DNA of 64,000 nucleotides from a virus (lineage: Duplodnaviria; Caudoviricetes). The notes below the pieces were generated by a model, which did not search any database, was not told where the DNA came from, and worked only from the letters and a program-made list of their open reading frames with translations. The stretch is from the IMG/VR virus record IMGVR_UViG_3300021387_000106, positions 45,801-109,800 of that record; one strand, written 5' to 3'. Made by a program: the position numbers and the translations under genes. Positions 3,034 through 52,135 of this stretch are shown here, piece after piece. Positions within the stretch are counted from its first letter, which is position 1. The number at the start of each line of letters is the position of its first letter.

Positions 3034-4235
3034 AATCGTTTCTTTTTAAATTGTTTATAAAAAATGAATTTATCTGTAAACTTCGTCAGATCTTGATTGA
3101 ACACTCCTATTTTCAAAATATCTTTCTTTAGGAATAGTTTCCTGCAAAGATTGTATGATTTGGTGTGTTGGAATATACCTAAATACGAATTGATGGAACG
3201 GACAATCTTCCAAGGTTTTGAGAAATCGAACTCCAAAATCTTTTTCTTCATTCTCTCCAGTGAATGATTCGATATGTATGTTCGCCAAGGCTTGATGTAC
3301 GCTCCCAAGAACTCTGTTCCGTTGTGTACCTCCGAAATCTCCAATTTTCCTCTGTGCAATTCCAATCCTAAGTTTTCTCGAAGGAAATCTATTATTTTTG
3401 GAACTAAGCTCAGAAGCCATTCTTTGTCGGAACTCACTACTGCCGCATCGTCCACATAACGACCATAATAACGGCATTTCATTTCTCGCTTCATGAACTG
3501 GTCGAAAACATTCAGGTAAACGTTCGAGAATAACTGACTTGTCAAATTGCCTATTGGTAATCCAAGACCATCTTCCAAGTGCAGCATACTCTTTGCAGGG
3601 TCTAAACCATCCCAATCGGACTTGTCGCCACAAATGACACAATTCTCCTTGGGATTCAGCATAACGATAACTTCCGTAAGCCATATTACAAAGTCCATAT
3701 CCAAAACTTCGCCCCACGTAGTATCTTCGTATTTCGATATAGCGTGAGTTTCCATTTTTCTCAAACTTCCAATAGCTATTTCCAAAAGCCGTTTCCTCAC
3801 GATGTGCATAAAGTAGCCCCTTATATCGAGGTGCATCACATAGCACTCTCTTTGCCAGTTGTGACTTTCCTTTCTGCAAAAATCCGTAATTCTCGCTATT
3901 CCATAATGAGTACCACGATTCTTGATGCAACTGTACGTGTCCTGAATAAAAGTCCTCTCGTATAGCTGATGCGTATAGTTGAAATACAAGTGGTGTACTA
4001 TTCTGTCTCTGAACATTGCAGCGAATATCTCTCGCTTTTTGGGATAATCCACAATGAAACATTTCGATGGAAGAGGTTTGTAATTCCGCGAATACAAATC
4101 CTCGCAAAGTCCTTCCATATTCCGTTTGAGATTCTTTTCCCAAGAGACTACATAACACCTCGCACTCTTGTTTATTTTCGCATCGTAGAACGCTTGATAG
4201 AGGTCGAGTAGAAGCTGTTGCTTTGTAAGTTCCAT
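3030..4235 (-). CDS. DGR reverse transcriptase
   Basis: PKKREIFAAMFRDRIVHH, LDIRGYF, GLPIGNLTSQLFSNVYL (DGR-type IGxxxSQ) and RYVDD motifs; adjacent to the TR. Confidence 0.96.
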   Translation of the reverse strand: MELTKQQLLLDLYQAFYDAKINKSARCYVVSWEKNLKRNMEGLCEDLYSRNYKPLPSKCFIVDYPKKREIFAAMFRDRIVHHLYFNYTHQLYERTFIQDTYSCIKNRGTHYGIARITDFCRKESHNWQRECYVMHLDIRGYFMHIVRKRLLEIAIGSLRKMETHAISKYEDTTWGEVLDMDFVIWLTEVIVMLNPKENCVICGDKSDWDGLDPAKSMLHLEDGLGLPIGNLTSQLFSNVYLNVFDQFMKREMKCRYYGRYVDDAAVVSSDKEWLLSLVPKIIDFLRENLGLELHRGKLEISEVHNGTEFLGAYIKPWRTYISNHSLERMKKKILEFDFSKPWKIVRSINSYLGIFQHTKSYNLCRKLFLKKDILKIGVFNQDLTKFTDKFIFYKQFKKKRL

Positions 4236-4272
4236 AAAAGAAAAGTAAAAAAAGGATGATTAGTACTGTTAG

Positions 4273-5172: not shown

Positions 5173-5209
5173 CCTTATCTTTGTTTTTATTATTTTTATT
5201 TTATTTATT

Positions 5210-5284
5210 AACCAATTCCATTACGGAGGTGGTCTTAGGCCGCTTGGTGCGGCCTTTGTCCGACCACTCCGAATGGATTGGGTT
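5210..5284 (-). promoter_or_regulatory. Nested hairpin/cruciform downstream of VR (DGR target-recognition element)
   Basis: Inner AGGCCGC-TTGGT-GCGGCCT (5237-5255) nested in CGGAG(G)TGGTC/GACCACTCCG and TCCATT/AATGGA arms. Confidence 0.65.
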
Positions 5285-5309
5285 GTTGTTCTGATTGGCT
5301 CAGTATGAT

Positions 5310-6413
5310 TTACTGAACCGGGCGCACAGCAAAACCGTCGTACCGACGGTCGTAGTACTGCGGATTGACACCACCAGAGTAGAAGACCAAGTTGCGAGCA
5401 TTGCGCGCAGAGTAGAACGAAGCAGACCAGTAGACGCCGTACGAACCGCGACTGCCCCAACTCGTACCATTGCCGTAGCCACTACAAGCAAAAAAGAGTA
5501 AGTTACCATTAATCTTCGACTTCAAGTAGATACCAACAACACCATTCACGGTTACACGCTTGTCAGTAGTACCAGCAGCGATTACCGTAGTGCCATCAGC
5601 CTGAACGAAGTCGCAATTATCGAACAACTCTTTAAATTCTTCCGTAGTAGGCATTCGCCAAGGTGCGCCAAGATTAGCGCGTGCAGCATCCTGAGAGGGA
5701 GCCATGTTAGCGGTCAACTTGTTACCTGGTGTGTCACCATAAACTTGTCCGTCATACCAAGGCTCTTCTGCATTAACACCACCCCAATTGTAATCGAATG
5801 AAGAGGTATCTTTCGGATTGTGTCCGTCAGTGTTACCCCAAGAGAAGAATGTTTTCTCGTACTGGAAGGCACTGGCAGCGAACTTGTCAGCCTGAGTGAG
5901 GTCAATATCAGAATCAGCCCAAAGCAAGCCACTTGGCAGACCCATATCTACAAGGTGGTTAGTTGGAGTTTGGCTCTGTTCGAGACCCAACATTCCTACC
6001 ATATTCCAAGCAGAACCATCATACTGGAATTGTACGATAGTCTGAGCCTTGATAAGACCAGGCTGAACAGCTTGACCGTTTACCTTAATGGATTTTGCGC
6101 CAGTGCTATTCACGTTAAGCGTTGCTCCTGCTGCCTGATTAGCATACTTGAAGAATACGCTCACGATACCATTCTTTAGCAGAACGAAGTTGGAAATAGC
6201 GACAGTCTTTGCAATCGTTGTTGCGGCTGTTTCGCAATTACCATATCCGTTACCAGACTTCGCCATATCCTGAACCAACTGCTGTGCAGGGTATTTACCC
6301 GCAGGAGTTCCGTCAGGATTGTACAGCATGACCTCCTGAGTTGCACCAGGTGCAGCCTGAGTGAGACCCGATTGAACCGCTTTCAAAGCGTTAATCATAG
6401 AAATACTTTCCAT
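5310..6413 (-). CDS. DGR target protein: tail-fibre/receptor-binding protein with C-terminal CLec-like domain
   Basis: VDMGLPSGLLWA and WRMPTTEEFKEL motifs, C-terminal YWSAS...GFAVRPVQ, and the VR at its 3' end. Confidence 0.9.
   Translation of the reverse strand: MESISMINALKAVQSGLTQAAPGATQEVMLYNPDGTPAGKYPAQQLVQDMAKSGNGYGNCETAATTIAKTVAISNFVLLKNGIVSVFFKYANQAAGATLNVNSTGAKSIKVNGQAVQPGLIKAQTIVQFQYDGSAWNMVGMLGLEQSQTPTNHLVDMGLPSGLLWADSDIDLTQADKFAASAFQYEKTFFSWGNTDGHNPKDTSSFDYNWGGVNAEEPWYDGQVYGDTPGNKLTANMAPSQDAARANLGAPWRMPTTEEFKELFDNCDFVQADGTTVIAAGTTDKRVTVNGVVGIYLKSKINGNLLFFACSGYGNGTSWGSRGSYGVYWSASFYSARNARNLVFYSGGVNPQYYDRRYDGFAVRPVQ
5313..5499 (-). repeat. DGR variable repeat (VR)
   Basis: Matches TR 4273-4459 at offset 1040, with only A-to-N changes. 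Confidence 0.95.
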
Positions 6414-44597: not shown

Positions 44598-44924
44598 TTA
44601 TTTTCCAATCTGCATTGACTGATATTTCCTATACATTGTCGCAATGACAAGTTTTGAGAGAGTATGACTATGAAATGCGCCGAAAATTCGCAACTTCTTA
44701 GCCACTAACGGCTTCATGAACCAGAAACTATTATCATACATTTTTTGATAATACTCTGTTATGACACGATAGTATTCAAGTTTGGCTTTCAGCAAACCCT
44801 CATACGCCTCGGCAAAGATGACGGAATCAATGCCGTATTCCTCGATAATGAGAAGTGCCCTTGCGCTTTTCTCCAACTCAGCACCTTTCTCTTTCGTGTA
44901 TTCTCTGAATCCATTATAATTCAT
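44598..44924 (-). CDS. Hypothetical protein
   Basis: Start overlaps the upstream stop (ATGA). Confidence 0.6.
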   Translation of the reverse strand: MNYNGFREYTKEKGAELEKSARALLIIEEYGIDSVIFAEAYEGLLKAKLEYYRVITEYYQKMYDNSFWFMKPLVAKKLRIFGAFHSHTLSKLVIATMYRKYQSMQIGK

Positions 44925-45331
44925 TTGCTTTCACTTTTAGTTTCGTCAACAAAATCACATGGTGGCATCGTCTGCAAGCGATAGGCAAGGATGGTCTTCC
45001 TGCCCTCAACAATCGCCCGACATATTCTATGCGCACCATCAGCAATCTGACCCAAATTGTCAAGAATGATAGGTATCTCGATGTCGCAGTCCATGCAACG
45101 CTTCATCTGCCAAATGAATTCGTCCATAGAAGATACGGAGAAATGCAACACAGAGAGGTCGAGACCCGCAAGAGGCAACTCGAACGGCTCCAGTCGTTGA
45201 TTATGGCACGCACGATACAACGTAGTAGCCATCCAGTGCTCACGCCCGCGAGTATAAACGCTTTCGCTGAACTCAAACGCTCCCAAGTCAATAACAGGAG
45301 GCTCATGTACTATTATATTTCCTTTCTTCAT
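44921..45331 (-). CDS. ParB/Srx-like domain protein
   Basis: PIILDNLGQIADGAHRICRA matches the ParB DGxHR motif. Confidence 0.7.
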   Translation of the reverse strand: MKKGNIIVHEPPVIDLGAFEFSESVYTRGREHWMATTLYRACHNQRLEPFELPLAGLDLSVLHFSVSSMDEFIWQMKRCMDCDIEIPIILDNLGQIADGAHRICRAIVEGRKTILAYRLQTMPPCDFVDETKSESK

Positions 45332-46776
45332 ATATACAAATGAGCGAATTTATCATCATCAAAGAACAGATAATAGATATTACCGATGTTCTTATGGTCT
45401 TTCTTCACACCCATACGAGTCATGGCACGTCCGAATCCGTTAAATTCCTCATGCTCATAGCCCATAGAGTCACACCAAAGACAATACTCCTGAAAGAGCG
45501 CATTTGCCAACACAATCTTTGGCTTTTCATCCAAATTGCCGACACGGAACGTCTCTCTGATACCATTATCATCAAAGAATACCCTCACAGTCTGCTTATT
45601 CTCTATCATATACTCACGCTTTGCCGACTCGCTGACACCAGCACCGACAAAAGAGAAATTATCAGCAGCCAACTTCAAATAGCCCTGCATCATCCAGTTA
45701 CGAATACCCGAATACTCACTTCTCAGAACCGAATCAAGGTCACGTCGAATATCCTTGTCCGTCACCTTCGCCCTGAAAGGAATGAATACCAACCTTCGCA
45801 TCATTGCCTTATCAAGATTGCTGTTCGTCGGCTTCCTATTCATGCTGAATATCATAAACGGAATATCATACGCTATCTCGAAATCACCGCCAATGCGTCT
45901 TATCGTCTGAGGTGAACCGCTACATAACGACTTGAAAGCATCCTCATGCCTGGTAATGTCATAACTCTGCACCTCGTCACATATATTGAACGTGCGCCCG
46001 ACAACTCCTGCAAGCAATCTCGCCCTTACATCAGGATTGCCACTGACAAGATTACTCAATGACTCCACGCTGATATTCCAAGCACCAAGCACACCTGTTA
46101 TGACATTCGTGATAGTGGTCTTACCATTACCGCCACCGCCAATCATCCATAAACTCTCTTCGACCCTATGGCTCATAGTGGCACGATTCACACAACCAAG
46201 ACCCAAATACTTCTGTAACGTCAGTATCTCACTATCGGGTAATATCTCACCAAGGAAATGAATCCAGTTCGGGCAGGTAGCATTTGGATCATAATCATAA
46301 TCCAACAACTGAGTAACTGCCATCCTATCCCGGAACTCATAGCGTATCGGATTGCTCACATCGGAGAAATCCCAAACACCATTTCTGAAACCTACCAAAG
46401 AAGGACTTACACACAAAGGACTCATAATAGCACCATCACGCAGACTGCCAGCCAACTTCTGACTACTCTTGACAATATCATCCTTACCAATACCCAACTT
46501 ACGCAAAGCATCACGCAAAGCATACTCCATACAGCTATTAGTGGCTTTGTCAAAAGGCTTCCATACCATGCCATCAAAGTAATACACAACACCATGCAGA
46601 CTTCTCAGACACTTCCTGCCAATATCACATACGAGATTTTGGTAATCATAAAGCCTATCACCATAACGCTGCTGATGGTAAGCCTCTACAACACGCTTCT
46701 TATCAACACCAGATGCAAACTCGTCTCGTAACTGGCGTATCAATCCGTCCTGTGATGATTTTATCCCTTTTTCCAC
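45328..46776 (-). CDS. SF3 helicase, D5/P4 primase-helicase C-terminal type
   Basis: D5_N-like GFRNGVWD...YDPNATCPNW, Walker A GGGGNGKTT, Walker B ICDE, motif C FSMN and arginine finger MRR. Confidence 0.85.
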   Translation of the reverse strand: MEKGIKSSQDGLIRQLRDEFASGVDKKRVVEAYHQQRYGDRLYDYQNLVCDIGRKCLRSLHGVVYYFDGMVWKPFDKATNSCMEYALRDALRKLGIGKDDIVKSSQKLAGSLRDGAIMSPLCVSPSLVGFRNGVWDFSDVSNPIRYEFRDRMAVTQLLDYDYDPNATCPNWIHFLGEILPDSEILTLQKYLGLGCVNRATMSHRVEESLWMIGGGGNGKTTITNVITGVLGAWNISVESLSNLVSGNPDVRARLLAGVVGRTFNICDEVQSYDITRHEDAFKSLCSGSPQTIRRIGGDFEIAYDIPFMIFSMNRKPTNSNLDKAMMRRLVFIPFRAKVTDKDIRRDLDSVLRSEYSGIRNWMMQGYLKLAADNFSFVGAGVSESAKREYMIENKQTVRVFFDDNGIRETFRVGNLDEKPKIVLANALFQEYCLWCDSMGYEHEEFNGFGRAMTRMGVKKDHKNIGNIYYLFFDDDKFAHLYI

Positions 46777-46856
46777 TATATATAAAACAATAATATAAAT
46801 ATTATAATACCCAATTAAGAAATATTACTTCATTTACTTCATTTTGCTTCACAGCA

Positions 46857-46914
46857 CAAAGATAAACACCTTTATTTAAAGGCATTGCGAATGATTTCTA
46901 AAATCTCGCCATTT
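46857..46914 (-). promoter_or_regulatory. Promoter with variant 22-bp motif upstream of the helicase operon
   Basis: Minus-strand TATCTTTG at 46857-46864; TTTCTAAAATCTCGCCATTT at 46895-46914 (18/20 match). Confidence 0.6.
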
Positions 46915-47381
46915 GAGAGCAAAATTGCTTCAAAAACACCCATATTGCTTCAAAACAACCATCATTTAACAATTAATTAACCCAAAAAACACCTCGTTTT
47001 ACCCCAAAATGACGCATTTTTCACACAATATTTACTACACCATTTCACCAAATGTTAAACAATTAACACTCGAAATGTTAAAATTGAAAATTAAAAAATT
47101 AAAATAAAAAATTTTTGTGGGAAGTCACAAACACCGTTTGGTCGATTTTTGCAGGGGGCTCCCCTCCATATTTTGTAAACATTTTAGATAAAAGGTTATA
47201 TTATATGTATAATGTAACTAACTGAAAATCAATTAGTTAGACGTACTTTTGAAGTGGGGAAAATCGTCTCCTTTGTCCTTTATTTTCGTACTTATTGAAG
47301 ATGATAAAAAACGTTTTTTGCTTTCAGGCTTTTAGTTGCAAATAATGAAGTATCTTTATTGCACATATATTATAATGTACG

Positions 47382-47389
47382 TACATTTG
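47382..47389 (+). promoter_or_regulatory. Bacteroidetes -7 promoter element for the right-arm transcript
   Basis: TACATTTG followed by CAG, 165 bp upstream of the first plus-strand gene. Confidence 0.55.
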
Positions 47390-47554
47390 CAGTGCATCTA
47401 CTTAGTAGGTGTGCGCTGTTTGACGTTCTGAGGTTACTGCTAAGGCTGCTGAGGCACTTGCTGAGGCTCTGAGGCTCTTAGTAGACTACTCACGCAATAG
47501 GGCGCTCGTTCTTTGACTTATTTACATTGTTTCACTCTTTAATACATTATCATT

Positions 47555-48634
47555 ATGGAAAAAAAGGTTTTAATTAGTGCACTTGCTGCACTCGTTCGTC
47601 CGAGTTTTAATGTTGCTTCTTATGAGGCTGAGTATTTAACTAAGGCTTTTGCTGCTGCTAAGGGTGATGCTAAGGCATTTGCTGAGGCTGTTGCTGCTAA
47701 GGATTCTGAGGTTGCTAAGGCTGCTGAGGATTGGAAAAAGGCAAATGCTGAGGCACTGGCTAAGGCTGAGGCTGCTGCTACTCCTTATCTTATTATCCGT
47801 ACCTTATTAGATAAAAAGGCTAAGGCTGAGGCACTTGTTGAGGCTAAGGCTGCTAAGTTGGCTAAGGCTACTGAGGCTAAAAAGGCTGAGGCTGCTGAGG
47901 CGCTGGCTAAGGCTAAGGCTGAGGCTCAACCAGTTCGGGCACTTGCTGAGGCACTTGCTGAGGCACTTGCTTTTGTTAGTAGTCCGACTGCTGAGGCTAA
48001 GGCTGAGGCTCTTGCTAAGGCTCTTGAGGTTGCTGAGGCTGAGGCTGCTAAGGGTGTTTTCAATATGTATTGGGATTGTAATAATACTGAGGGCACTCGT
48101 TTAACTGCTGAGGCTGATGTTTACTATTTGCCTACTTCTTTGGGATTCGCTGAGGCTGCTGCTAATTGTCTGCTTAGTTACTCCGTTTTTGCTGAGGTTG
48201 CTGTTAGACGTGCTAAGGCTGCTGAGGCTATTGAGAATCTTCTCAACGGCTTAACTGATAGGATGGTTAAATGCATCGAAAAAGGTGCAAAGATTGAGGC
48301 TGTTAGGGCTAAGTTGTCTGAGGCACTGGCTGAGGCTGAGGCTAAGGCTGCTGCTAAGGCTGAGGCTCTTGCTGCTGAGGCTGCTGCTAAGTTTAAGCGT
48401 GTTTCTCTAACTGCTGAGGCTGCTGAGGCTGCTGCTAAGGCTGCTGCTTGCAAGGTTGGCACTGCTGCTAAGAAAAAGGCTGAGGCTGAGGCTAAGAAAA
48501 AGGCTAAGGCTGCTGAGGCTGCTGCTACTGCATGGAACGTGTTTAAACACGAATACGCTGAGGCTGCTGCTAAGGCTGAGGCTGAGGCTTTTGAGGTTGC
48601 TGAGGCTGTTGAGGCTGAGGCTGCTGCTAAGTAA
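47555..48634 (+). CDS. Ala/Glu/Lys-rich low-complexity helical protein
   Basis: 359-aa ORF with a TTTAATACATT...ATTATG leader and unique non-repeat islands, followed by a terminator. Confidence 0.7.
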   Translation: MEKKVLISALAALVRPSFNVASYEAEYLTKAFAAAKGDAKAFAEAVAAKDSEVAKAAEDWKKANAEALAKAEAAATPYLIIRTLLDKKAKAEALVEAKAAKLAKATEAKKAEAAEALAKAKAEAQPVRALAEALAEALAFVSSPTAEAKAEALAKALEVAEAEAAKGVFNMYWDCNNTEGTRLTAEADVYYLPTSLGFAEAAANCLLSYSVFAEVAVRRAKAAEAIENLLNGLTDRMVKCIEKGAKIEAVRAKLSEALAEAEAKAAAKAEALAAEAAAKFKRVSLTAEAAEAAAKAAACKVGTAAKKKAEAEAKKKAKAAEAAATAWNVFKHEYAEAAAKAEAEAFEVAEAVEAEAAAK

Positions 48635-48657
48635 CTTAAAACTCTCTTTCTAAGTTT

Positions 48658-48712
48658 GAGGCTAAGGCTTAACCAGTCTTAGCCTCTTTCTTACTTTCTT
48701 TTTTTTCTTTTC
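48658..48712 (+). terminator. Intrinsic terminator
   Basis: GAGGCTAAGGCT-TAACC-AGTCTTAGCCTC followed by a long T-rich tract. Confidence 0.7.
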
Positions 48713-49296
48713 TGAGTGAGGCACTTGCTTGTAAATAAGTCGAATTATTAAATATGTATGGTTACTAAAAAGGTTAAGGCTGAGGCACTGGCTGAGGCTG
48801 CTGCTTTTATTGTGTTCGATTCACAAAATATTTGCTATTACCTTTTTGTTTGGTTTTTATTTTCTGAGGCTGCTGCTGAGGAAAATAAATTTTAGTTTAC
48901 TTTGAAAATATTTTTTTCTTAGACTACACAAATAAAAAGGCTGCTCTTTGACAAAATGAAACGAAATAAATATTGTTTGGAAAAGTTTTCATTTAGATTT
49001 TATTCTTTTAGATTTTAATTTTCTTAGATTTTATTTCGTGAACACTGCAAGGCTATTACCAGATTTTACTTTTTTATAAAGATTGATCTTGCGAGCTTTG
49101 CAGAATTGATACAAGATATAATTCATAATTGAGTTTTATCAGATGCAGGAGAGTGCAATACGGCACTCTCCTTTGTTGTTTGGATTTTATTTTTTGTTTT
49201 GATTGGTTATTCCTGATTTCAAAATATTTTTTTGAGATTTGGATTTGAGTTCGATTCTCAATCTTAGCGCAATTAATTTTTAAAACTCAAAAGATT

Positions 49297-51628: not shown

Positions 51629-52135
51629 ATGAAAAAGATTCAGAAAGAAGTCGTAATCAAGCGTTACGACACAATGTTTGTTGCCAACGATGGCACGGAG
51701 TTCACAACGGAAGAAGAGTGCAAGAAGTACGAAGAAAGTGCAAAGTGTGCTTTGATGGCACGTTACAATTTGCTTGTCATCAAGGAATCAGATTGCTTTT
51801 CCCTCTTTGGTTTTGGCTCTGACGAAGATGTTATCAATGTTGTAAAGGTTGAGTCTAAAGAAGATATAAATCTGATTCTGCAACTTTTGATTATCGAAAA
51901 TCCTTGGCATTACGATGAAAACAAGGCTGAAAATCCCGATGCTGCTGCAAGTAAGAAAGAAAATCTGAGAAAAGTAACTGAACGCCTGACGAAAGCATTG
52001 CAGGAAAAGGATTTGATTTTCATCGGACGTGGTTACGATTCTGATGGATTCTATTTCGAGGGAACTCGCAATGAGCATATCCGTGTGCTGGAGAATATCG
52101 GAAAAGAGAAATCGGAATCTGAAACTGGCGAATAA
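51629..52135 (+). CDS. Hypothetical protein
   Basis: FVANDGTEFTTEEECKKYE motif, common in small phage proteins; follows a hairpin-leader element. Confidence 0.75.
   Translation: MKKIQKEVVIKRYDTMFVANDGTEFTTEEECKKYEESAKCALMARYNLLVIKESDCFSLFGFGSDEDVINVVKVESKEDINLILQLLIIENPWHYDENKAENPDAAASKKENLRKVTERLTKALQEKDLIFIGRGYDSDGFYFEGTRNEHIRVLENIGKEKSESETGE

Follow-up and report, generated by a model that had tools for sequence, protein, structure and literature searches.

Why does one phage gene spell its alanine, glutamate, and lysine residues almost solely as GCT, GAG, and AAG, and hold dozens of copies of the heptamers GCTGAGG and GCTAAGG that all point the same way? The gene lies in IMG/VR virus record IMGVR_UViG_3300021387_000106, a 109.7-kb contig that assembles as a circle (end overlap, 107 bp) and has a guanine-plus-cytosine (GC) content of 41.5%; the window that we analyzed is the 64,000-nucleotide (nt) stretch comprising bases 45801–109800 of that contig, and positions below are those of the window. 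The source is a rumen Bacteroidales phage of ~110 kb, a tailed phage that codes for a large terminase, a portal, a major head protein, and a 3286-amino acid (aa) tape measure, and its terminase shares 58% identity with the terminases of Bacteroides and Phocaeicola phages. The gene codes for 359 aa and is the first of the rightward early arm. An earlier note, made from the sequence alone, had proposed that selection acts on the nucleic-acid word GCT[GA]AGG (hereafter, the word) as well as, or instead of, the protein. The gene encodes a real helical protein, and the reading that we tentatively favor is that constraint has locked it into one sense-strand codon vocabulary and that the word array is that vocabulary.

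A polar array of one DNA word

Between 47439 and 48881 the + strand has 58 copies of the word (GCTGAGG 37, GCTAAGG 21) and the − strand none, in line with the several dozen co-oriented copies first reported, and a strand-by-strand count of the remaining ~108 kb finds one forward and one reverse copy where base composition predicts ~3–5 of each word per strand. The core of the word, T-R-A-G-G or RAGGCT, is just as polar, with 75 forward and 2 reverse copies within 1.5 kb, and the locus holds 7507 direct 6-mer pairs (16 times the genome median) and 280 inverted ones, below the median of 353. The open reading frame (ORF) accounts for 51 of the 58 words, all 51 in frame as GCT followed by GAG or AAG and a G, that is, Ala-Glu or Ala-Lys. 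The seven others lie in the leader (47439, 47448, and 47460), in the 5′ arm of the terminator (48661), and downstream (48779, 48791, and 48875).

Spacings between words in the ORF are all multiples of 3 (6 nt 13 times, 9 nt seven times, 12 nt 11 times, then 15, 18, and up), with no 10–11 or 21–22 nt period that would indicate helical phasing. Tandem Repeats Finder (TRF) detects numerous imperfect arrays, all short, with periods of 6, 9, or 12 (2–8 copies each, 63–100% matches) and no tandem unit; the longest exact internal repeats are 23–30 nt, and the ORF contains many identical word strings of 12–23 nt.

The array stands close to a switch in gene direction. Genes left of ~46.8 kb are leftward, the last being a superfamily 3 (SF3)/D5-type helicase gene (45328–46776), and those right of 47.5 kb are rightward; the cumulative GC skew turns at ~47 kb, a switch in strand composition, and 780 bp separate the helicase gene from the word-array gene, at a locus with 40–43% GC. 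Two IMG/VR contigs, 99% identical (L001 and L002), both end just before the word locus, ~450 nt upstream of where the helicase gene starts, which suggests that assemblies break at or near that locus.

Strings of the word are not confined to this phage. The 21-mer GCT-RAG-GCT-RAG-GCT-RAG-GCT occurs exactly in >113 unrelated IMG/VR viral contigs (L029–L141), nearly always in coding orientation, and the (Ala-Glu/Lys)n spelling is thus recurrent in phage genes. The arrays there are small, with a median of 5 words and at most 24, and Ala codons remain mixed in the ORFs that carry them. Phages with a 38–69% identical helicase have no words at the equivalent position; more distant relatives lack both gene and array and have unrelated first genes there, some with (Thr-Glu-Ser)n tandem repeats. 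In one contig, L019, the flanks of an unrelated 211-aa gene (3880–4240 and 5200–5400, minus strand) hold many CAGGCTTTTAT/GGGCTTAAGCC-type words in both orientations, with a mild enrichment of AGGCT (about 10 per kb versus about 1); as a parallel, the AGGCT enrichment at the equivalent place in L019/L003 is weak.

Codon vocabulary and context

The near-exclusive codon usage that the earlier note described is plain in the counts: GCT is used for 109 of 122 Ala, GAG for 44 of 47 Glu, and AAG for 35 of 44 Lys, along with GTT (20/21) and ACT (12/13). Genome averages are 38% for GCT, 49% for GAG, and 62% for AAG, and the gene is the extreme codon outlier among 93 ORFs. Its Val, Thr, and Ser codons GTT, ACT, and TCT are each one step from GCT.

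Spelling also depends on the neighboring residues. We compared the window with two metagenome contigs, L026 and L027, whose backbone is 93–97% identical to it, and with a 97%-identical allele, L025. Ala preceding Ala, Glu, or Lys is GCT in 90 of 91 cases in the window and in 107 of 108 in L026, and GCA is found in the gene mainly before Leu CTN. An isolated Ala in [Glu/Lys]-Ala-[Glu/Lys] is GCT in 22/22 cases in the window allele and 30/30 in the L026 allele (52/52 in total), compared with 5/37 in the rest of the genome, where GCA takes 23/37; only one of 86 Ala-[Glu/Lys]-[G-starting] tripeptides there has the word spelling. T-capable codons end in T in 75 of 79 cases before Glu or Lys versus 130 of 182 otherwise (p = 6e-6), and the gene's spelling opposes the genome's own codon-pair habit (p = 9e-12).

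A narrow family of helical proteins

The product is 34% Ala, 13% Glu, and 12% Lys. Database searches recovered only five relatives (P0001–P0005; 333–479 aa, 47–64% identity), all collinear with it; the family aligns nearly without gaps at 57% identity and shares a nonrepetitive core, FNMYWDC...LG.AEAAANCLLS, with Trp, Cys, and Tyr. Relative to L025 the ratio of nonsynonymous to synonymous divergence (dN/dS) is 0.22, with dS (0.069) equal to that of neighboring genes. Because the gene is collinear and conserved in at least five diverged members and has this low dN/dS between close alleles, we take its product to be a genuine protein of a narrow, new, and unannotated family of roughly 330–480 aa, and the idea that the word is selected instead of the protein finds no support. 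The protein has no match among Pfam, PHROG, PDB and BFVD folds, or the ESM Atlas; IMG/VR and GTDB genomes hold no relative of it, and GenBank phages no match to the gene by DNA or protein. The 211-aa protein at the equivalent position in L019/L003 is ruled out as a homolog (BLASTP E = 21, hhalign probability 0.6%).

Long Ala/Glu/Lys-rich helices are known from EAAAK-type single alpha helices and TolA domain II, and the earlier note had compared the product to the former. The likeness lies in the composition and in an all-helical AlphaFold2 model of twelve helices (mean predicted local distance difference test [pLDDT] score 73.6, predicted template modeling [pTM] score 0.51). The product differs from them in lacking any sequence, profile, or fold match, in its conserved nonrepetitive core, and in being modeled as packed helices and not as a single rod.

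The spelling is maintained between alleles

L025 differs from the window at 25 positions of the ORF (1077 nt), with no indel, and its leader has one 8-nt unit, CTGAGGCT, fewer. Ala/Glu/Lys codons make up 59% of the synonymous sites but contain only 3 of the 15 synonymous differences (p = 0.0025). The allele in L026 and L027 is far more distant, with 480 aa (a length difference of 121 aa), 63% protein identity, and 82% DNA identity. It nevertheless uses GCT for 149/162 Ala, GAG for 51/55 Glu, and AAG for 49/56 Lys, has 56 forward words and no reverse ones, and retains the leader block, the terminator arm, and two downstream blocks. Homologs that keep the protein with mixed codons, which the earlier note considered a sign of simple slippage expansion, were not seen among these alleles.

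Where the window and L026 share a residue, the codon differs at 10 of 149 Ala/Glu/Lys positions versus 29 of 78 (37%) for other degenerate residues (p = 3e-8). The unambiguous core contains ~20 conserved Ala/Glu/Lys codons, all of them unchanged, and 16 other codons that have changed synonymously. Synonymous change at Ala/Glu/Lys codons is suppressed 5–6 fold at both depths of divergence, and Cys, Asn, Arg, Leu, Pro, Gly, and Ser codons drift freely. Even among Ala codons the effect is selective: those before Leu are free to drift, with 4 of 8 aligned GCA positions altered and GCA kept at orthologous pre-Leu positions, and those before Glu, Lys, or Ala stay. Given the L026 spelling and the suppressed change at conserved residues, these comparisons indicate that the Ala/Glu/Lys spelling is actively maintained and is not the fossil of a recent expansion. 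What stands of the proposed selection on the nucleic-acid word is, accordingly worded, a constraint beyond the protein on Ala/Glu/Lys third positions.

L027 differs from L026 in the ORF solely by a CT-to-AG change at L027 positions 5240–5241, which converts the conserved Cys codon of AANCLLS to TGA and cuts the protein to 323 of 480 aa; L027 may carry a natural null allele, or the change may be an assembly error.

Restriction-site avoidance explains part of the vocabulary

The phage lacks many restriction sites. Genome-wide, CTAG and ~30 six-base palindromes are absent, including AAGCTT (0 versus 96 expected), ATGCAT (0 versus 101 expected outside the gene), TGATCA, CATATG, GATATC, GTATAC, CTTAAG, CTGCAG, GCATGC, and others. 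GATC, GGCC, CCGG, and the asymmetric CTGAAG, CTCAAG, GAATGC, CACGAG, and CTCCTC are at 0–18% of expectation (CTGAAG at 1 versus 88), and GGTNACC is at 0 versus 27. The sole ATGCAT genome-wide is in the gene, at 48271, and is present in L025 and not in L026; a GTGCAC lies in the gene at 47577. As a general island of unpurged restriction sites, the locus is not an outlier.

These absences bear directly on codon choice. Changing GAG to GAA would create CTGAAG at 36 of 44 codons, changing GCT to GCA would create CTGCAG or CAGCTG at 37 of 109, and changing GCT to GCC would create an avoided word, mostly one containing GGCC, at 46 of 109. Among 16 pure vocabularies, the native GCT/GAG/AAG makes the fewest strongly avoided 6-mers, 3–5 versus 6–75 in the other 15. 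Restriction avoidance explains part of the pattern, namely the use of GAG, the lack of GCC, and the lack of GCT/GCA mixing; the rest is not explained by it.

We propose that low complexity makes any codon choice in a gene count dozens of times over, such that mixed spellings would be penalized and the gene would lock. Extreme restriction-site avoidance supplies part of the lock, as GAA after NCT gives CTGAAG, mixing GCT and GCA before G gives CTGCAG or CAGCTG, and GCC after G gives GGCC. The residue beyond avoidance, GCT at each [Glu/Lys]-Ala-[Glu/Lys] and AAG before G, could be kept by short-tract copying among the identical 12–23-nt strings or by weak selection on the sense-strand word. The word blocks in the flanks would be part of a leader module (words, CTTAGACTAC, and a boxA-like box) duplicated on either side of the gene, and the terminator would merely use the word as one arm. 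A dedicated loading, partition, packaging, or decoy function would not be needed.

Several observations weigh against this locked vocabulary. Avoidance leaves ~65% of GCT-to-GCA and 94% of AAG-to-AAA changes free, and the invariant GCT of [Glu/Lys]-Ala-[Glu/Lys] runs opposite to the GCA preference in the rest of the genome. The vocabulary itself makes 58 CCTNAGC sites, a site that is ~5-fold depleted elsewhere. L025 has no ORF indel alongside its 25 substitutions, and copy-correction is therefore not demonstrated; the longest exact repeats, moreover, reach just 23–30 nt. Avoidance of structure, another conceivable lock, is not specific. Lastly, the word blocks keep their position in noncoding DNA, to which a coding argument does not extend. 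Such slippage as is seen is unit-sized, consisting of the 8-nt leader indel and one-unit differences in the flanks.

Other candidate locks were tried and rejected. The native sequence folds less, as messenger RNA or single-stranded DNA, than versions recoded at Ala, Glu, and Lys (z = 4.6 and 6.8), but GCA/GAA/AAA and GCC/GAA/AAA fold even less, and single GCT-to-GCA changes stabilize the predicted fold no more than other NNT-to-NNA changes, so structure avoidance is not the specific cause. Hidden stops in the −1 frame (a TGA or TAA per word) fit the T before Glu and Lys and fail on GCT-GCT, GAG, and AAG; avoidance of Rho loading (YC) fits GCA before CTN and fails on GCT versus GCA elsewhere. 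A lock by AGCT avoidance is not indicated, AGCT being merely 2-fold depleted.

The word as a depleted restriction site

GCTGAGG and GCTNAGG are, as the earlier note stated, the complements of the BbvCI (CC↓TCAGC) and Bpu10I (CC↓TNAGC) sites (PMC4081073). The word thus coincides with a known recognition sequence, as a decoy for a host restriction system should. CCTNAGC is found 6 times outside the locus versus 25–34 expected, which under an order-5 model ranks it third in depletion among about 2000 NNN-N-NNN patterns; GCTNAGC is similarly ~5-fold depleted, and CCTNAGG is not depleted. However, CCTNAGC is depleted alike in the array-free relatives G003 and G004 (and not in G001 and G002), and we therefore attribute the depletion to ordinary host-dependent restriction avoidance, with nothing specific to the array, and do not count it as evidence for a decoy. 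The 58 copies of a site shed elsewhere reflect either a cost paid or a gene that travels as a cassette with its own history, the latter view being supported by the presence of two very different alleles in one backbone.

Phage restriction-site avoidance is a fitting comparison insofar as dozens of 6-bp sites are absent and the codons steer clear of CTGAAG, CTGCAG, CAGCTG, and GGCC, but the word-array gene concentrates a depleted site 58-fold and does not shed it. In phage T7, all EcoP15I sites lie on one strand; the 58/58 co-oriented asymmetric sites of the array resemble this, although with one reverse copy elsewhere the immunity would be incomplete.

Slippage, translation, and overlapping frames

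Codon purity could in principle arise without selection, through slipped-strand mispairing and short-tract conversion of GCT/GAG/AAG units, with the flank words as spill-over. Such pure concerted evolution would account for the short imperfect TRF arrays, the leader unit indel and the 121-aa length difference between alleles, the one-step neighbors GTT, ACT, and TCT, and the commonness of small arrays of the same word in other phages, and a neighboring family does have (TES)n tandem repeats. We nonetheless consider it unlikely: L025 has accumulated substitutions and no ORF indel, the family is collinear and almost gap-free, exact repeats do not exceed 30 nt, Ala/Glu/Lys codons are frozen in the old nonrepetitive core as well, GCA is retained at orthologous pre-Leu positions, and other phage genes with the word keep mixed Ala codons.

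Cryptically simple or low-complexity coding repeats that arise by replication slippage, such as the (Thr-Glu-Ser)n of L010, are alike in using few amino acids with one codon each, in unit-sized indels and coding orientation, and in varying fast between close genomes. Silk-type repeat genes offer another parallel in their near-single-codon usage. The word-array gene differs in having no tandem unit, no head-to-tail identical units (the TRF copies being imperfect), and a stable length between close alleles; its codons are pure at conserved positions against a 37% difference at other synonymous sites, and words also stand at conserved noncoding positions.

Translational selection, by which a very highly expressed early gene would use the best-supplied codons (NNU in four-fold families, NNG for Glu and Lys), is very improbable. 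The capsid and tail genes do share the preference for GAG and AAG (74–93%), and GTT and ACT are near-exclusive in the word-array gene too, but the capsid gene uses GCT for only 8 of 24 Ala (33%). Two-fold Y codons in the word-array gene are 26% NNC (74% NNT), versus 57–85% NNC in capsid and tail genes, and TTA is used for 6 of 28 Leu (21%), versus none in the capsid gene, such that the gene resembles the unoptimized helicase gene; the codons of seven other residues, as noted, drift between alleles. The only tRNA gene of the phage is a tRNA-Ser, and we rejected phage tRNA supply as the cause.

An overlapping frame, Leu/Arg-rich at +1 or Ser/Leu- or Ala/Ser-rich in antisense, could constrain third positions, because these are the second positions of CTR/AGG codons in the +1 frame, where by sequence logic Glu-to-Lys changes would be silent. 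Alternative-frame ORFs of 40–94 aa do exist, but stops split the frames into 4–5 pieces lacking conserved starts, and the frames are open simply because the words contain no stop in them. We find this explanation scarcely credible.

Flanking words and a possible cis-element

The coordinates of the gene and its flanking features are collected in Table 1.

Table 1. Features of the word-array locus (window coordinates).
Feature	Position	Strand	Basis
Putative early promoter −7 element, TAcaTTTG	47382..47389	+	Sequence reading; identical in L026
Leader word block, noncoding: 5 YTRAGG copies, 3 of them full GCT[GA]AGG	47428..47476	+	
Leader module, first copy: CTTAGTAGACTAC ... TTCTTTGAC (boxA-like)	47477..47517	+	Aligns with the second copy and both L026 copies
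Gene for Ala/Glu/Lys-rich all-helical 359-aa protein	47555..48634	+	ORF list; codon counts; homologs P0001–P0005 and L025–L027
Intrinsic terminator: hairpin 48658–48686, 12 pairs, then T-run	48658..48712	+	Hairpin scan
45-codon ORF over both downstream blocks	48758..48895	+	ORF list; no ORF at the aligned L026 place
Downstream word block 1, noncoding in L026	48770..48805	+	Position kept in L026, word number differs
Downstream word block 2	48864..48881	+	2 words here, 3 in L026
Module, second copy: CTTAGACTAC ... (T)GCTCTTTGAC(AA), boxA-like, before small early-gene cassettes	48918..48952	+	

The element upstream of the leader fits the Bacteroides TAnnTTTG consensus, and if this putative promoter is used, the word-bearing leader would lie at the 5′ end of the transcript. 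As first noted, no start codon precedes the leader copies: their Ala/Glu/Lys-like frame is closed by a TGA just upstream. The L026 leader block is of equal size with the words in another order, and word counts in the flank blocks are one unit apart between alleles. The leader continues from the word block through CTTAG(TAG)ACTAC to the boxA-like TTCTTTGAC, and in both alleles the module is repeated after the terminator, giving the form CTTAG(TAG)ACTAC ... boxA-like (T)GCTC(GT)TCTTTGAC on either side of the gene. The second copy matches 12 of 13 positions of the rrn boxA consensus, and by its sequence the module may be a nut-like antitermination site heading the early arm. The leader folds unremarkably (z = −0.36), and an Rfam search gave no family match.

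The terminator stem is indeed formed by the word, with GAGGCTAAGGCT as its 5′ arm and, as its 3′ arm, CTTAGCCTC, the sole antisense copy in the locus; both arms are conserved in L026, and the loop differs. The downstream copies and the 45-codon ORF were likewise correctly noted, but the latter, to judge from L026, is probably not a gene.

These arrangements bring in a further explanation, that the sense-strand word (T-R-A-G-G/RAGGCT) is a selected cis-element of the first early transcription unit, overprinted with the helical protein. On RNA it could be a platform for multivalent binding or belong to a nut-like leader for antitermination; on DNA it could be an array of binding sites, form an R-loop or origin region, or act as a sink for an enzyme specific to CCTNAGC. 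The platform would extend from the leader across the terminator as far as the following boxA-like box, at the cost of 58 restriction sites that are removed elsewhere. We think this somewhat unlikely. The 5–6 times slower third positions of Ala, Glu, and Lys accord with it, as do the drift of Ala before Leu against its fixation before Glu, Lys, and Ala, the T endings before Glu and Lys, the opposition to the genome's codon-pair habit, and the apparent cost of 58 copies of a depleted site; all copies, furthermore, are sense and within one transcription unit, and word blocks stand at equal noncoding positions in both alleles, beside boxA-like boxes. On the other hand, the CCTNAGC depletion, shared with array-free relatives, gives no pointer to a locus-specific reader of the word. 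Spacings are irregular multiples of 3, the leader fold and the Rfam search are unsupportive, the ParB-like candidate reader (see below) is unsupported and is replaced in L026, the same word strings occur in >113 unrelated phage genes, and more distant phage relatives do without the gene or the array.

Should real selection on the word account for the residual constraint, the locus would be a clean example from nature of a protein that has every codon in common with a nucleic-acid signal of kilobase scale. If instead the locked-vocabulary reading holds, extreme restriction-site avoidance can freeze synonymous sites in low-complexity genes, a caution for dN/dS inference and for motif-based signal hunting in phage genomes. 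The gene is the first that the phage expresses and is sharply variable between near-identical phages, the usual mark of host-takeover or anti-defense genes.

Origin, partition, and packaging roles

We found no evidence for the iteron, parS, packaging-site, or decoy roles that the earlier note had raised. Iteron arrays at replication origins have repeats of about 17–22 bp, or octamers, spaced in helical phase next to an AT-rich stretch for unwinding. Phage lambda has its ori iterons inside gene O, and the phage P4 ori and crr contain octamer iterons bound by the primase-helicase. The word array is comparable in consisting of short direct repeats by a replication module, near the SF3/D5-type helicase gene and the strand switch. 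It differs in its 58 copies of a 7-nt unit at spacings of 6, 9, and 12 nt without helical phasing, in its absence from relatives with the same helicase (38–69% identical), and in the presence of separate iteron-like ATTGCTTCA repeats. The latter occupy an AT-rich intergenic region beside the helicase gene (46840–46960), with three direct copies of a 17-mer containing ATTGCTTCA, and related TGAAGCAA...ACGTCAC repeats lie at the equivalent position in L019. By their sequence and placement, these repeats are a better and more conventional candidate for an origin or iteron region than the word array.

As for partition, the supposed ParB-like protein (44921–45331) matches nothing in Pfam at E ≤ 0.01, and its one hit is to a PHROG of unknown function. 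This 136-aa gene is replaced in L026 (1655–2047) by one for an unrelated 130-aa protein with an HEVSH motif, and the array stays; this neighbor is dispensable. The Chi sequence of Bacteroides fragilis AddAB is unknown in PMC2887965.

Variation around the locus

The phage backbone is mosaic. Besides the word-array gene and the 136-aa gene, a 168-aa gene at 51629–52135 has an L026 allele that is strongly diverged (dS about 2). The gene that stands first opposite the helicase in related phages comes from another family (L010:1459–2238, L012:155–823, and L022:1157–1849, minus strand), which has a variable acidic tandem tract, (ACT GAG AGC)n or (ACC GAG)n, and a basic Lys/Arg tail. The locus thus seems prone to low-complexity, fast-changing early proteins.

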